A DNA stretch of 36,193 bases, from UHGV virus genome UHGV-0315046. One strand, written 5' to 3'. The stretch's first letter is position 1. Every line of letters starts with the position of its first letter. Source of the DNA: a virus. Below are positions 684-31,900 of the stretch, in pieces. Below the pieces are notes generated by a model. That model did not search any database. It saw only the letters and a list, made by a program, of their open reading frames with translations, and was not told the DNA's origin. A program made the position numbers and the translations under genes.

Positions 684-2531
684 TTATAATGATGATATTA
701 AATAGTATTCAACAAGTGTTGGTAAGGAAACACCAACAGGTGTTGGTCTTGATATTGTTATTGTTGTTCCTGAAACTGAAACAGTGTCCATTGAGTTTGC
801 AGCATCAGTTGGAATTACGCTGGCAGAATATATGACGCCAGAAATTGGGTTTGGGATGTCTGCAGTTCCTGATGTAGCTCCGGGTGACATAGGTACAGTT
901 ACCTTTCCTCTAGTTAATTTATTGTTATTAACCCCAAAGTTATTGTTTCTATCTTTTGGTGAGTTTAATAAGGTAAGTGATGTTATGTAATTACCGTTCA
1001 ATGAGAGACCGTCAATATCATCAAACAACAAATCACTAGCAAACATACATCCATTGATATTAATATTTCTTGATGTTTTTGAATAAATTGATTTATCACC
1101 ACCAATTATATTTACTCCCAAAACATTAACATTACTGACATTGTTTAAAGATATACCTATATTGTTATTGATAGGGTTATTGTTTTCACACCTAATTTCC
1201 ACTCCTTCTATATTACGAAGAACTGAAGGCGTCTGAGATCTAAAGTCTATTCCAACAAACTGATTAATGCTGTCACCTTGTGCGGCAATCCAGCAATCTC
1301 TTACAGAAAAAACAGAATTGTTATTTTCAAGAATTATCCCAGTTGACCCTACGAAATCAATATCGACATTCGAAAGATGCATATAAAGGCTACCTTTTAC
1401 CCATATCCCAACGTTATTTGAGATACACATTGTCTCACCATCAATAATTATCCCCTCGCTTATCACTTCACCACCAGACCATGAGTAAGTTTCTGGTGCA
1501 ATATCTATTCCTATAGACGATGGTTGAGACAATCCCTTTCCTGTGAATTTACATCCTGATATATGTATACTAACACACTGACCAAGCAATCTAAGACCAA
1601 TATTACACCCACTAGCTCGGCAGTTTGTCATTGAGCTGTGCCACCAGCCTTGCATTTCAAAACCTATTGAACAATTTTGTACCGTGACGCAGTCAAAATT
1701 AAGAGCGTAAACTTGCCTTATTACTGTATCGCTTTTTTTTAAGGTAGTTCCTATCCCCTTCACTATATCGTTTCCAGTAATGGTTATGTCACGAATAAAT
1801 GCACCTGCTGTTGTAGGGCCATAATCAAAACATATAATATAAGCATTACTATTACTTAAAATATCTCCTATTGGCCGTATATGAGTTCCGTTTCCACATC
1901 CGAACAAATTAATTCTATCAGGGATAATAATAGTTTCACTAATTCTATACTCTCCTGCTGGAAGAAATACATTACATCCAGATGGATATGAACTCTTTAG
2001 GTCTTGAAGACAGTTTTTAATTGCTGTTGTGTCATCATTGACGCCATCAGCTTTAGCTCCCCAACTGAAAACAGAAAAGGTCATTGCATTAAACAAATGT
2101 TGAGTCTGTGGAACCGCTCTCGGAAAAGGTTGTTTAACAGCAATTAGAGAATCTCCCATTCCTTCGGATGGGCTTGATAACCTTTTTTCAAGCTGATCAG
2201 GATCATACTTCAGCACATTCGGAAAATAGAACTGCTGTGCACCATACGCATCATAAACAGCCATAGAATGGCCTTGCACAGTTACGAATTTGGCAATCTG
2301 TCCGTTATATACAGGATACCCGCCAGCGTTAATGATGATTGGTTGCGAAACAGGAACGTGAGAGCCGTCTTCATTCTCTACATAAACCTGAATCCGGTTT
2401 TCAGGATTTACCGGGTCAGTGTCAATTTTCCCGATATAAATTTCGCCATTGGCTACGGCTTTAAAAGAACGCGCCATAGTGAAGAGTTGCGAAGGCATAC
2501 TCACTACAACATTGGCTGTAATGTCTGTCAT
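684..2531 (-). CDS. Tailspike protein: P22 gp9-type N-terminal head-binding domain fused to a divergent beta-helix receptor-binding domain
   Basis: 615-aa ORF. The first ~110 aa ([29 protein letters not shown]...VLKYDPDQ) match the conserved P22/Sf6 tailspike head-binding domain as I recall it; the remainder is Asn/Gly/Ile-rich with repetitive beta-helix character and lower GC. Confidence 0.9.
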
Positions 2532-2709
2532 TTAATTTGCTCCAGATACAAGGAATCGCCGCAGCATGGCTACGGTTGATATTTGTTTGGTTTTTGAACT
2601 ACGAAAATTTCGTAGTGCTATCCATCAAGGCCATCGCCGCTGAGTTGCTGCGGTGAATTTTGGGCATAAAAAAACCCAGCCGAAGCTGGGTCGTTGCGTT
2701 GGTTATCTG

Positions 2710-3624
2710 TCAGTAGTTATGTACTGAAGGAGGTAATTCTTTATTCTTAAGTCTCATCCATGCGGAAAGATTCGTTGGTCCGTCTGGCTCATTAATATCA
2801 ATATCTCGTGTGTGGTTTATTAAAACGTCTCTCGCCATTCCTATAACATAAGAGAACTCATGACCGTAGTCGTAGCATCTGCCGGAATAGTTCGATTGAA
2901 TTTGTTTCAGCGCCGGATACAGTTCGCGGAATAATGCCTGTGAGCGGTTGGCATAATCCCATAACCATACAAGGCTGTTTGCTTCTTTTGCAGAAAGCTC
3001 GTTGGTTTTCTTCTCTTGTTTGCCGATTAACTCGCCTTCAAGCGGAACGCGAGCTGCAAGTGACAGAGCTTCGGTAAACTGCTCATCGCTGATTTCTTTG
3101 TATGAACACCCAAAATGAGATTTCAGTGACGACCACATGGTGATCATCGCCTTAGCCTGTTTTTCTTTTGGCAGAGACTGACCGCGACTCATGACGAGTT
3201 GTTTAATGGCTTCCTGCTGTTCAGTGGTGATTTTTCCCGGCAACGCCTTTTTAGCTTTCGGTGTATTTCCGTAAGACCCCGTTTTACGAATGGATGGCAA
3301 AACTTCAGCTGTCACCCATTTGCGGAATTTGTGCGGGACTGAACCTTTATTGACGGCATCACGGCAGCGCAGAACCAATGTATACATACCTGATTCGCTC
3401 ACAATGCTTAAATTCTGCTCACCACCAAGGGTGTAACTTAAAGTTACTCCCTTCTCATCGTCATCAAGTGCAGTAAGCGCCTTGCGTGAGTTAGTCAGGG
3501 TTAAAGCATCACAAACATCTTTTGCTACAAACCACGGCTCACCGCACTTGTTGATGACGCGGATTTCACTGTCGCCGAATTTGAAGATGGTGAAATCGTT
3601 TTGTGCCTTTGCTATACTTTTCAT
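2710..3624 (-). CDS. ant: Antirepressor Ant (immI region)
   Basis: 304-aa ORF with an N-terminal Bro-N/AntA-like segment ([15 protein letters not shown]), placed between arc/mnt and the tailspike as in P22 immI. Confidence 0.7.
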
Positions 3625-28964: not shown

Positions 28965-29243
28965 TCAGGCCTCAAAACTGTTGCAGCAGTCTTGAGGCTT
29001 TTCTTTTGTCAGCACCTTGGCTACTTTCTTTGCCAGTTCCGCCAATTCCTCGTCTTCAACACCCCACTCCAGCACAGCCATAAGCATGGCCATCTTTGGG
29101 ATAAAACTGTCTTTCCATCGCGAAATTTGCGATTCATTAATCCCTAACGCGTCGGCAACCTTTCGCTGACCACGTACAGCAATTCGATTTAGGATGTTGC
29201 TTGTAATTGCATTCGCTTTCTTGCGAGTACTTGTAAGTTGCAT
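28965..29243 (-). CDS. cII: CII transcriptional activator
   Basis: Start refined to MQLTSTRKK...; core ESQISRWKDSFIPKMAMLMAVLEWGVEDEELAELAKKVAKVLT resembles lambda CII; the 121-aa track ORF is an in-frame upstream extension. Confidence 0.8.
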   Translation of the reverse strand: MQLTSTRKKANAITSNILNRIAVRGQRKVADALGINESQISRWKDSFIPKMAMLMAVLEWGVEDEELAELAKKVAKVLTKEKPQDCCNSFEA

Positions 29244-29278
29244 ATGTAAGTATTTCCTTAACAAATAAGAAGTTATGC

Positions 29279-29346
29279 GCATCAACTTATGCGCGTTGTA
29301 TTCCCGCATTTCGGCGGGAATGAGGACCATGACTGTTAAAGAGCGG
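29279..29346 (-). promoter_or_regulatory. nutR (boxA plus boxB hairpin)
   Basis: Minus strand boxA-like CGCTCTTTAAC followed by boxB hairpin TCCCGC-CGAAAT-GCGGGA, between cro and cII. Confidence 0.5.
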
Positions 29347-29351
29347 TGTTA

Positions 29352-29546
29352 CTATTTGTTTTTCTTGTTGCTTGGGAAAGGACGAACTTCCTCTCCAATC
29401 ACACTGCCATCAGGCTTTACCGTAACCATGATGTTACGGCCTGCCAGAATGGCCTTGCTGATAGCGCACTGGATTACACCAAAGTCACTGGCTGCTTTAG
29501 CCTGTCCATGGATTTTGGCGTAATCGGCAAGTGTCATTCGAATCAT
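29352..29546 (-). CDS. cro: Cro repressor (lambda type)
   Basis: Start refined to [10 protein letters not shown]... with GGAGAG upstream; C-terminal [17 protein letters not shown] resembles lambda Cro. Confidence 0.85.
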
Positions 29547-29552
29547 ATGCAC

Positions 29553-29652
29553 TCTCCGTTATTAACCATGAACAAAGAATACTACAGGTATTCAAAGCAA
29601 TCAATACTCAGGGTATTTTTAGTTTAAGTACCTTAGCTATTAGAATTAAGCT
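29553..29652. promoter_or_regulatory. OR operator / PR-PRM divergent promoter region
   Basis: Two clear 15-bp palindromic operators AATACTacaGGTATT (29578-29592) and AATACTcagGGTATT (29603-29617) between cro and cI; cI starts with almost no leader. Confidence 0.6.
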
Positions 29653-30369
29653 ATGGAAAATAAAAAATCACTGACGACAGAACAGCTCGAAGACGCTAAG
29701 CGGCTTAAGGCTTTGTATGAGTCAAAAAAGAAAGAATTGGGAATAACCCAATACTCAATCGCTGATGAACTGGGTATCACCCAAGGAGCGGTAGGGCATT
29801 ATCTTAATGGCAGAAACGCGCTAAACGTTGAGGTTGCATCTGGTTTTGCACGATTGTTGCAAGTCTCAATTGCTGATTTTAGCCAGTCAATTGCTGCCAA
29901 GGTTGCAGAACAGGCAGAAAGCCTTAAGAGCGATGCCAACGTAAGGTATGCAGGGGAATACAGAGCAGGAAAGAGGTATCCGGTGTTAAGCAGTATCCAG
30001 GCTGGCTCGTGGTGTGAAGCATGCGAACCATACACCATTAAAGACATAGATGTTTGGCTTGAGTCTGACGCGCATATTCAAGGTAATGCGTTCTGGCTTA
30101 AAGTGGAAGGTGATTCAATGACGGCACCGGTTGGGTTAAGCATTCCAGAGGGAACATTCGTTCTTTTCGATACCGGAAGGGAGGCGATCAACGGCAGCTT
30201 GGTCATAGCAAAACTTTCTGACTCTAACGAAGCAACATTCAAGAAGCTGATAATCGACGGCGGAAATAAATACCTCAAGGGACTTAATCCTGCATGGCCT
30301 CTCGTGCCAATCAATGGAAACTGCAAGATTATAGGCGTTGCAATTGAGACAAAACTAAGGCTGGTTTGA
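29653..30369 (+). CDS. cI: CI repressor (HTH N-terminal domain plus S24 LexA-like autocleavage domain)
   Basis: 238 aa; N-terminus LTTEQLEDAKRLKALYESKKKELGITQ resembles lambda CI; Ala-Gly cleavage site (SIQAGSW), catalytic Ser (EGDSMTAP) and Lys (FKKLI). Confidence 0.9.
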   Translation: MENKKSLTTEQLEDAKRLKALYESKKKELGITQYSIADELGITQGAVGHYLNGRNALNVEVASGFARLLQVSIADFSQSIAAKVAEQAESLKSDANVRYAGEYRAGKRYPVLSSIQAGSWCEACEPYTIKDIDVWLESDAHIQGNAFWLKVEGDSMTAPVGLSIPEGTFVLFDTGREAINGSLVIAKLSDSNEATFKKLIIDGGNKYLKGLNPAWPLVPINGNCKIIGVAIETKLRLV

Positions 30370-30386
30370 TCACGCAAGGGGCGATT

Positions 30387-30755
30387 ATGGTTGGAACCGC
30401 TATAGCAAGCTTTTTGGGGATGTTGGCAATCTCAACAATTTACGGCTTAGCGCATGCTTTTATTGCGAAATCTCTATCAGAAAAAATAAGCCAGGCTTGG
30501 GCGCATAGATCTGCTCGTTTCATGATTCTAGTGGTCATAGCAATACAAGGGATATCTGCATTTATCCTCTATGGATCAAGCTTATACCTGTTGTATCAAG
30601 GCGCGACATTTACGCCTTACACCAGTGATTACGGAACTCTATACGATGGTAGTGAAGACATCTCTATGGCTTGGATCGTCTTTGGTTTATCTATGGCCGT
30701 GTCTGTTGTAGCAGACATCATTAAGGTAATTCTCGTCTTAACCTTCGCTGACTAA
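30387..30755 (+). CDS. Small multi-pass membrane protein co-transcribed with cI (rexB-position moron)
   Basis: Start refined to MVGTAIASFLG... with AAGGGG upstream; about four hydrophobic helices by inspection; begins 18 bp after the cI stop and ends before OL. Confidence 0.55.
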   Translation: MVGTAIASFLGMLAISTIYGLAHAFIAKSLSEKISQAWAHRSARFMILVVIAIQGISAFILYGSSLYLLYQGATFTPYTSDYGTLYDGSEDISMAWIVFGLSMAVSVVADIIKVILVLTFAD

Positions 30756-30834
30756 CCCATAATCCCGGCAGCAATAGCTATCGGGATCCACTTCACATAT
30801 CCCGCATAAAAAGCACTGAACAAGCAGACACCGA

Positions 30835-30930
30835 AAAAATAAATATCCTTTGTATTCATTTGCTTATCATTATTTTATCAAAAATAAATACCTTGGGTAT
30901 TTACACAATAAAATACCTACAGTATTCTTT
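30835..30930. promoter_or_regulatory. OL operator / PL promoter region
   Basis: Operator palindromes with the same half-sites as OR: AATACCttgGGTATT, AATACCtacAGTATT and a degenerate AATATcctttGTATT. Confidence 0.55.
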
Positions 30931-30972
30931 AGCCATCAGCAGGACGCTGGTAGCCAAACGGAACAGATTGGC

Positions 30973-31015
30973 AGGCTCTTTAACATTGATGGGATTGTCC
31001 CGCCGAAATGCGGGA
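30973..31015 (+). promoter_or_regulatory. nutL (boxA plus boxB hairpin)
   Basis: GGCTCTTTAAC followed by TCCCGC-CGAAAT-GCGGGA, identical in boxB to the nutR copy, about 110 nt upstream of N. Confidence 0.5.
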
Positions 31016-31121
31016 ACCAAAGAGTAGTTGGCTTTGGGGTGACGTGAAGTGCAGCTGCACGACGGCAACCGGAAGATAAGCCCCGGCGCGTCACCGCCAA
31101 AGTCAATCATCGGAGGTCAAC

Positions 31122-31421
31122 ATGACAGTAGTCATTACATATCTGGCTGACGATAACGCCAGAAATCGCCGCAGAGCACGCAGACAGGCTCAACGTGAGC
31201 AGGTAATGCAAGAGCAGCGACTGGCGCGAAAAATTGCGCTAAAGCTCTCTGGTTGCGTCAGAGCAGACAAAGCAGCATCACTCGGAAGCCTTCGCTGCAA
31301 TAAGGCAGAAGAAGTCGAGCGTAAACAGAACCGTATTTACTACCGAAAGCCACGCAGTGAAATGGGTGTGACTTGTGTTGGTCGCCAGAAAATGAAATTA
31401 GGCAGCAAACCACTTATTTGA
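31122..31421 (+). CDS. N: N-type transcription antiterminator
   Basis: 99 aa; arginine-rich N-terminal motif (NARNRRRARRQAQREQ); C-terminus RIYYRKPRSEMGVTCVGRQKMKLGSKPLI resembles the lambda N C-terminus. Confidence 0.8.
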   Translation: MTVVITYLADDNARNRRRARRQAQREQVMQEQRLARKIALKLSGCVRADKAASLGSLRCNKAEEVERKQNRIYYRKPRSEMGVTCVGRQKMKLGSKPLI

Positions 31422-31429
31422 GGTGAGAT

Positions 31430-31900
31430 ATGACAAAATCATGGAGCGTACCTTTTCCTGAATCAGAAACTGAACATGATGGAATGCCTGTTTTCTGGAG
31501 ATTCCAAGCGACAGTTGAAGAAGATGGAATCAAAATATTCGCACTTCAATATATAGCTTTTCATCAGACAGAGCATTATGCATGGTTGGTTCCTGCGCAT
31601 TGGATTGTTGATTTTAAACCAGCACCAAATCAGTGGTTACAGGAATGGAAACAAAGGAGAAATAGATATGCAATTAAGAAAGTAGCAAAAAATGCAGAAA
31701 GATCTTTTGCATTCCCAACGAAGAAACTTGCCATTGAGAGTTTATTGCGCCGGAAGAAATACCATTTAATGAGAATCAAACAAGATTTTGCTGTTGTATC
31801 AACTCTTGTTGATGGGATGAAGAATATTGATACATCAACACCAGATATTGAATATAACTTTGGACACAACCAAGAAACAGAAAATTGGGTATTCTACTAG
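31430..31900 (+). CDS. Hypothetical early-left protein (moron candidate in the ral/sieB slot)
   Basis: 156 aa, starts 9 bp after N with GAGGTGAG upstream; Trp/His-rich N-terminal half, basic middle; AT-rich; followed by a terminator. Confidence 0.55.
   Translation: MTKSWSVPFPESETEHDGMPVFWRFQATVEEDGIKIFALQYIAFHQTEHYAWLVPAHWIVDFKPAPNQWLQEWKQRRNRYAIKKVAKNAERSFAFPTKKLAIESLLRRKKYHLMRIKQDFAVVSTLVDGMKNIDTSTPDIEYNFGHNQETENWVFY

Follow-up and report, generated by a model that had tools for sequence, protein, structure and literature searches.

What fills the space between the repressor gene (cI) and the left operator (OL) of this prophage, and what could the product do in the lysogen? We addressed this question for the UHGV virus genome UHGV-0315046, a stretch of 36,193 nucleotides which is referred to below as the window and which represents a prophage of E. 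coli, P22-like (Lederbergvirus-type) and mosaic in its early region. Directly behind cI and on the same strand lies an open reading frame (ORF) of 122 codons, in the slot that is occupied by rexA and rexB in phage lambda. An earlier reading of the DNA (the original prediction) had taken its product to be a multi-pass membrane protein co-transcribed with the repressor, and had named exclusion and abortive infection (Abi) effectors as the typical cargo at this position. Judged by sequence, the ORF is hkaS of coliphage HK620, which has been annotated as 'unknown' since 2001 and is already catalogued. hkaS is a real gene under purifying selection. By analogy we tentatively regard it as accessory (moron-type) cargo that forms the second cistron of the operon of the prophage repressor, and propose that its product may act in phage exclusion at the cytoplasmic membrane, a role that we regard as possible rather than probable.

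The HK620 immunity region is 98.9% identical to window positions 29300-31313, and the order in the HK620 record is cro (divergent), OR1-3, cI, hkaS ('unknown'), tIMM, OL3-1 with pL, nutL and N. The window cI is 99.6-100% identical to the cI of HK620, mEpX2 and HK630, and HkaS itself is 96% identical to HK620 HkaS. In profile searches HkaS matched phrog_6534 (PHROG 6534, unknown function) at E=2.1e-78 over residues 1-122 of 122, and the same profile was matched by all 13 of the diverse HkaS members that were compared. These members represent 13 clusters, drawn from Escherichia, Salmonella, Hafnia, Cronobacter, Citrobacter and others, which are 52-81% identical to the window protein and align with it along the full 122 positions, the only gap being of one residue.

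The hkaS gene (369 bp) begins with an ATG at 30387 and its TAA codon ends at 30755. As the TGA stop of cI ends at 30369, the two genes are separated by a spacer of 17 nt and the hkaS ATG begins at the 18th base past the cI stop, in agreement with the original prediction of an ORF of about 122 codons immediately after cI. The same prediction had the gene ending before OL, and this was borne out: 86 nt separate the end of hkaS from the first of three left-operator-like sites, which begin at 30842, 30887 and 30912, with pL lying among them (Table 1).

Selection on the gene was measured at two depths. The ratio of non-synonymous to synonymous substitution rates (dN/dS) was 0.14 between E. coli-type and Hafnia-type hkaS and 0.17-0.20 between Salmonella-type and Hafnia-type hkaS, and one pair of Salmonella alleles had a dS of 0.128 with a dN of 0. 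Full-length, uninterrupted hkaS was present at 80 of 80 IMG/VR loci, which together held 40 nucleotide alleles and 26 protein variants. Within E. coli, the ratio of non-synonymous to synonymous polymorphism (pN/pS) at these 80 loci was 0.32 for hkaS compared with 0.03 for the adjacent cI, indicating that hkaS is constrained yet evolves faster than the repressor, as is common for interface proteins. That the ORF arose by chance or is a functionless, decaying remnant, for which one could cite the position of HkaS outside known families and a few frameshifted alleles, is effectively refuted by these selection values, by the intact gene at every one of the 80 loci, by the 122-residue length kept in 13 clusters down to 52% identity and by the confident structural model described below.

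Frameshifted alleles were seen in a small number of records. Phage HF4s (locus L005, about position 1680) has a 1-nt deletion in a run of six A residues (window 30481-30486), so that its hkaS is frameshifted after approximately codon 32, and a 44-residue database fragment (P0013) represents an allele of this type. Three further database proteins have an out-of-frame N-terminus, with the first transmembrane helix (TM1) removed. These alleles may reflect sequencing errors, decay or slippage-based on/off switching.

The surroundings of hkaS were examined for promoters and transcript ends. A consensus scan found neither a promoter-like nor a terminator-like site between cI and hkaS. Upstream of cI the hexamer TAGAAT is a candidate -10 element of PRM and, given its distance from the cI ATG (Table 1), cI would be leaderless, as for lambda PRM. 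This hexamer was absent from the output of the consensus scan, as would be expected of a promoter that depends on an activator and has a weak -35 element; the center of OR2 lies approximately 43 bp upstream of the cI ATG. A hairpin situated directly past the hkaS stop codon is probably the 3'-end or terminator element of a cI-hkaS transcript. In the Hafnia-type lineage this hairpin is kept with a change from G.U to A-U, which fits an RNA of the + strand only. In the Salmonella type its place is taken by an unrelated hairpin of 12 bp, and in the P22-immunity hybrid by a canonical terminator made up of a stem and a T-run, so that either a hairpin or a canonical terminator follows the hkaS stop codon in every lineage. 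The tight cI-hkaS junction together with the downstream hairpin or terminator supports a cI-hkaS transcription unit which ends before OL, and from this arrangement we infer that the two genes are co-transcribed and that hkaS is expressed in the lysogen. No second ORF with a coding signal was found between cI and OL, hkaS being the only conserved ORF in this interval, and the original prediction was correct in stating that a RexA-like partner is missing.

The membrane location of HkaS was analyzed by hydropathy and by structure prediction. The Kyte-Doolittle profile contained three peaks (residues 1-27, 45-70 and 93-121). An AlphaFold2 (AF2) model calculated from a shallow alignment had a mean predicted local distance difference test (pLDDT) score of 91.5 and a predicted template modeling (pTM) score of 0.78, with long helices at residues 2-29, 41-74 and 89-121, a short amphipathic helix at 31-38 and a small beta-hairpin in the periplasmic loop. 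Both methods thus agreed with the multi-pass membrane protein that had been predicted; the number of hydrophobic helices had been given as about four and is corrected here to three. The loop at residues 28-44 carries K28, K33, R41 and R44 and the loop at 71-92 carries D81, D87, E90 and D91, and by the positive-inside rule these charges place the N-terminus in the periplasm and the C-terminus in the cytoplasm. HkaS is therefore predicted to be a three-pass inner-membrane protein of N-out/C-in topology.

Conservation among the 13 members was concentrated in three parts of the protein. Invariant residues were found in the cytoplasmic helix (K33, Q36, W38, H40, A43-R44-F45), at the exit of TM2 and in the periplasmic loop (Y67, L69-Y70, G72, T74, G83, Y86, G88, I92, A95-W96, F99) and at the end of TM3 (D110, K113, I115, V117-L-T-F-A-D122). 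The C-terminal D-x-x-K...VLTFAD motif was invariant, with VLTFAD following directly out of TM3 and leaving no cytoplasmic tail. The conserved periplasmic hairpin is rich in Tyr and Gly, and the cytoplasmic amphipathic helix is basic. When five diverse members were compared, 12 of 22 residues in the periplasmic loop and 8 of 17 in the cytoplasmic loop were invariant, both proportions being above those of TM1 and TM2, and this better conservation of the loops indicates that HkaS is more than a hydrophobic anchor. The 17-residue loop is the sole predicted cytoplasmic part of the protein and, as there is no tail, little of HkaS would be available for sensing cytoplasmic events.

Library scans of HkaS with Pfam, PHROGs, NCBIfam and PADLOC returned nothing significant except phrog_6534, and Pfam and PHROG scans of the 13 members gave the same outcome, in keeping with the earlier statement that the protein has no recognizable motif. 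A match to Cation_ATPase_C (E=0.0012, failing the cut-off, in 1 of 13 members) was rejected as an artefact of hydrophobic composition. A profile search of 1.84 billion representatives yielded, beyond the family itself, one more full-length cluster, one fragment and one repeat protein; the latter, of 5949 residues, was rejected as a relative because its score was the sum of nine identical 7-bit matches. A sequence search of the PDB gave no match, and a literature search on hkaS, HK620 exclusion and mEpX2 did not find a functional study.

The order at every locus examined was cro (divergent), cI, a spacer of 17-20 nt, hkaS, operators and N, with a purine-rich Shine-Dalgarno sequence in the spacer in all lineages. 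hkaS was found behind an S24 repressor in Escherichia, Salmonella, Hafnia-type, Cronobacter, Citrobacter and other lineages, always as a second cistron in the cI-to-OL slot, and the rexAB-like position that had been claimed for it is upheld. cI was directly upstream of hkaS at 79 of 79 IMG/VR loci with sufficient flank. Among complete E. coli genomes hkaS was present in 146 of 5426 (about 2.7%) and this cI type likewise in 146 of 5426, all copies being chromosomal, and both genes occurred together in one set of 16 records of the phage collection, on P22-like, lambda-like and Shiga toxin (Stx)-phage backbones. Between the E. coli type and the Salmonella type HkaS is 59% identical and cI 86% identical (dN 0.34 vs 0.08). 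Repressors at 50-71% identity had other slot contents, for example a different 200-residue gene in Erwinia phage 49.

A hybrid lineage (L108, positions 2067-3400, and L109) separates hkaS from the immunity switch. In these loci the N-terminal domain of the repressor is only 19% identical to that of the window, Cro is of the P22_Cro family and the operators read ATTTAAG...CTTAAAT, whereas the C-terminal domain of the repressor is 84% identical to that of the window and is followed by hkaS (54% identical). This is a clear natural case of domain-level recombination inside the repressor gene. As hkaS is kept beside a P22-type N-terminal domain, Cro and operators, it lies outside the immunity switch and outside any one immunity specificity, and it travels with the C-terminal half of the repressor.

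We propose the following course of events. In the lysogen, a transcript from PRM would run through cI and the 17-nt spacer into hkaS, and at the establishment of lysogeny a transcript from PRE would do likewise. Translation of hkaS would start from its own Shine-Dalgarno sequence, and transcription would stop short of OL, at the hairpin or terminator. The 122-residue product would then be located in the cytoplasmic membrane with three helices, N-out and C-in, and almost no cytoplasmic mass, where, on its own and without a sensor, it would exclude superinfecting phages. Such a protein would more probably block genome entry at the periplasmic face, in the manner of superinfection exclusion (Sie) proteins, and less probably form a triggered, depolarizing channel like RexB, because there is no partner sensor gene, the cytoplasmic surface is almost nil and the best-conserved exposed element is periplasmic. 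It is position alone that suggests an exclusion or abortive-infection role. The claim that the slot is typical for such effectors holds as far as the known hotspot precedents are concerned (PMC8585504, PMC2629481) and fails for other immunity types, which hold a secreted 134-residue protein or nothing.

Several results weigh against exclusion by HkaS. Searches of PADLOC-DB v2 with the window HkaS and a Salmonella homologue returned zero defence families at E<=1, known Sie proteins showed no homology to HkaS in the PHROG, Pfam and PADLOC scans, no similarity to annotated PHROGs was seen and fold comparison retrieved no fold at a meaningful score. Remote homology to RexB, a check proposed with the original prediction, was not detected, as the HkaS alignment reached a probability of 0.3% when compared with lambda RexB in hhalign. 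Neither expression data nor a phenotype for hkaS or any homologue was found in the literature. The cI-OL slot also houses non-Abi cargo, the imm434-type slot holding a 134-residue secreted protein with a signal-like N-terminus, and it is empty in Serratia OS31 and mEp213. The rare frameshift alleles (HF4s, P0013) indicate that hkaS is dispensable for lytic phage growth. Finally, the strong conservation of the periplasmic loop would suggest that the target is itself conserved, for instance a component of the host, rather than fast-evolving phage proteins.

This conservation would also suit a lysogenic-conversion or host-fitness factor in place of a phage defence, an explanation that we consider doubtful. 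HkaS might protect the lysogen from a membrane-active toxin or might influence a membrane complex or a stress response of the host. Its size and three-helix architecture are like those of small membrane immunity or regulator proteins (the immunity proteins for pore-forming colicins have 3-4 transmembrane helices), the periplasmic loop and C-terminus are highly conserved across genera, as would fit a conserved host or toxin target, and elsewhere the slot carries cargo that is not Abi, such as the secreted 134-residue protein of 434, Sf6 and Huey. However, sequence or fold similarity to colicin or microcin immunity proteins or to host regulators was not found in Pfam, NCBIfam or the PDB, a bacteriocin gene is absent nearby and no phenotype is on record.

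An Abi effector resembling RexB, that is a latent channel or holin-like protein which collapses the membrane potential when triggered by an infecting phage or by a distant sensor, appears unlikely. Position and operon are the same as for rexB, and class I holins such as lambda S105 have the three-helix N-out/C-in topology that is predicted for HkaS. TM3 carries the invariant residues D110 and K113 within it, and a stripe of polar or small residues on each helix could line an oligomeric pore. Set against this, the interval from cI to OL contains no RexA-like partner, HkaS has no homology to RexB, and holin models gave only one match among 13 members (one model, E=0.045), with TIGR01593 at E=0.08, also in one member. 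The charged cytoplasmic tail typical of holins is missing, and almost no cytoplasmic surface remains on which a trigger could act.

We consider it very unlikely that HkaS serves prophage regulation, acting on repressor stability or cleavage or on the lysis-lysogeny decision, for example via the membrane protease FtsH. The linkage of hkaS to the cI C-terminal-domain lineage was unbroken in 9 of 9 lineages, including the P22-type hybrid, the counts of hkaS and cI in E. coli genomes were identical and, to judge from the pRE annotation of HK620, hkaS would also be made from PRE when lysogeny is established. Adjacency alone explains the linkage, however, because the known recombination junction falls within the hinge of the repressor. 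At 65-71% identity, related repressors function without hkaS, phage with a frameshifted hkaS has been isolated as viable, and at the protein level HkaS evolves approximately four times faster than cI. A particular form of regulation, to which we attach very little weight, would couple HkaS to the C-terminal (S24 cleavage/oligomerization) domain of the repressor, whose cleavage, stability or localization it could tune, and hence the induction threshold. Such coupling would explain why the two are joined across at least five enterobacterial genera, even after P22-type versions have replaced the DNA-binding domain, Cro and both sets of operators.

The features of the region are collected in Table 1.

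Table 1. Features of the immunity region in window coordinates, followed by the slot ORF of other immunity types in the coordinates of the respective loci
Feature	Position	Strand	Basis and remarks
cro	29352-29546	-	divergent from cI; ORF list; HK620 cro annotation maps here; homologues with Pfam Cro
OR1	29578-29592		pattern match; HK620 OR1 + OR2 annotation agrees
OR2	29603-29617		pattern match; HK620 OR1 + OR2 annotation agrees
Candidate PRM -10 hexamer TAGAAT	29641-29646	+	direct sequence reading; 6 nt before cI ATG
cI repressor, HK620 immunity type	29653-30369	+	Pfam HTH_3 E=8e-10, Peptidase_S24 E=5e-24
Shine-Dalgarno AAGGGG for hkaS	30376-30381	+	sequence reading; 5 nt before ATG, within 17-nt spacer
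hkaS, 122 aa, second cistron of immunity operon	30387-30755	+	ORF; HK620 annotation; phrog_6534 E=2e-78; AF2; selection; synteny
Hydrophobic 35-aa ORF MNTKDIYFFGVCLFSAFYAGYVKWIPIAIAAGIMG, probably not a gene	30752-30859	-	convergent with hkaS, 4-nt overlap at stop; annotated as a gene only in HF4s
Hairpin AUCCCGGCAGC-AAUA-GCUAUCGGGAU	30762-30787	+	directly past hkaS stop; no U-tract; RNA fold z = -2.2
Third left operator-like site AATATCCTTTGTATT	30842-30856		pattern match; 45 bp before OL2, 70 bp before OL1
HK620-annotated OL3, window equivalent	30864-30880		poor fit to operator pattern
OL2	30887-30901		pattern match; HK620 annotation
pL (TTTACA-17-TATTCT)	30900-30928	+	consensus scan; HK620 annotation
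OL1	30912-30926		pattern match; HK620 annotation
N antiterminator, first pL-operon gene, far slot edge	31122-31421	+	phrog_271 E=6e-36; weak Pfam N_peptide match
156-aa ORF	31430-31900	+	directly after N
134-aa slot ORF of 434	L014 2109-2513		overlaps repressor stop codon
134-aa slot ORF of Sf6 (gene 38)	L102 1908-2312		overlaps repressor stop codon
134-aa slot ORF of Huey	L100 1909-2313		overlaps repressor stop codon

Operators were located with the pattern AATAY-N5-RTATT, which had five matches in the whole window (36 kb) where 0.12 would be expected by chance. The 45-bp and 25-bp spacings of the three left sites were identical in six lineages. The OL3 annotated in HK620 may be misplaced. 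An Rfam scan of positions 29200-31600 gave nothing meaningful.

The hydrophobic 35-codon ORF on the minus strand was rejected as a type-I-toxin-like partner: a frameshift interrupts it at approximately 23 of 80 loci, the Salmonella and Hafnia-type lineages either lack it or have it broken, and the two positions at which the window differs from HK620 within it are both non-synonymous. The third left operator-like site accounts for the conservation of the 5' end of this ORF.

Similarity to HK620 stops at approximately 31313, inside N, which encodes 99 residues here compared with 90 in HK620. This looks like a mosaic junction within N, with the arginine-rich N-terminus and nutL staying of HK620 type. 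The 156-codon ORF that follows has a G+C content of 36% compared with 47% for the window and gave no significant PADLOC or NCBIfam match, and at the equivalent position HF4s is annotated with a 'TM helix-containing protein'. It is a second unexplained accessory gene of the early left region. The 134-residue slot protein of other immunity types carries inconsistent labels ('repressor protection protein', 'PagP-like', 'gene 38 protein'), and a literature source for the first of these names was not found.

A close comparison for hkaS is lambda rexAB, which has the same slot and strand, on the downstream side of cI, before OL/PL and N and in the repressor transcript. RexB, like HkaS, is a small polytopic inner-membrane protein. 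RexB has 144 residues and four transmembrane helices, whereas HkaS has 122 residues and three, is unrelated in sequence and has no RexA partner. By homology, helix number and partner gene alike, HkaS is outside the RexB family. Class I holins share the predicted three-helix N-out/C-in topology; they have a charged C-terminal tail and are encoded in a lysis cassette with an endolysin, whereas HkaS lacks the tail and its gene is in the immunity region.

Single-gene inner-membrane superinfection exclusion proteins include HK97 gp15 and T4 Imm. Proteins of the SieA type are, as is predicted for HkaS, small membrane proteins that are encoded by one gene and require no partner, and they have no homology to HkaS. 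P22 SieA is an inner-membrane protein which blocks DNA delivery (PMC10883804), and its gene is located in the immI/ant moron (PMC2629481), outside the repressor operon, whereas hkaS is within it. In these searches HkaS fell into none of the Sie, holin and defence families with which it was compared.

The cI-N region has been described as a hotspot for abortive-infection genes with a promoter that is highly active in lysogeny (PMC8585504). In Salmonella prophage BTP1, bstA follows the repressor gene directly, is presumably transcribed from the repressor promoter and is strongly expressed in the lysogen, which shows that defence cargo is found in this slot in P22-like phages; BstA localizes to sites of phage DNA replication and is accompanied by a DNA-based self-immunity element, aba (PMC8585504). 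BstA and HkaS share the type of slot, whereas HkaS is a small membrane protein that bears no sequence relationship to BstA and has no PADLOC match. Genes 44 and 45 of Epsilon34 were likewise described as 'like rexA and rexB' in position (PMC2629481). Sf6 gene 38 and the 134-residue ORF of 434 occupy the slot of hkaS and are similarly fixed to their own repressor type, whereas their products have an N-terminal signal-like segment and a soluble body, are not polytopic and are unrelated to HkaS.

The cI-OL slot has already given RexAB and BstA, and HkaS adds a compact, single-gene sequence orphan in prophages of E. coli (including Shiga-toxin phage backgrounds), Salmonella, Citrobacter and Cronobacter. 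If phage exclusion is its role, HkaS would represent a new family of sensor-less membrane exclusion proteins and would help to predict failures of phage therapy on such lysogens; if another role is true, the slot would also carry host-fitness or regulatory cargo. Compared with the systems above, HkaS is a sequence-unrelated occupant of a known cargo slot in the lambdoid repressor operon, and not a new kind of system.

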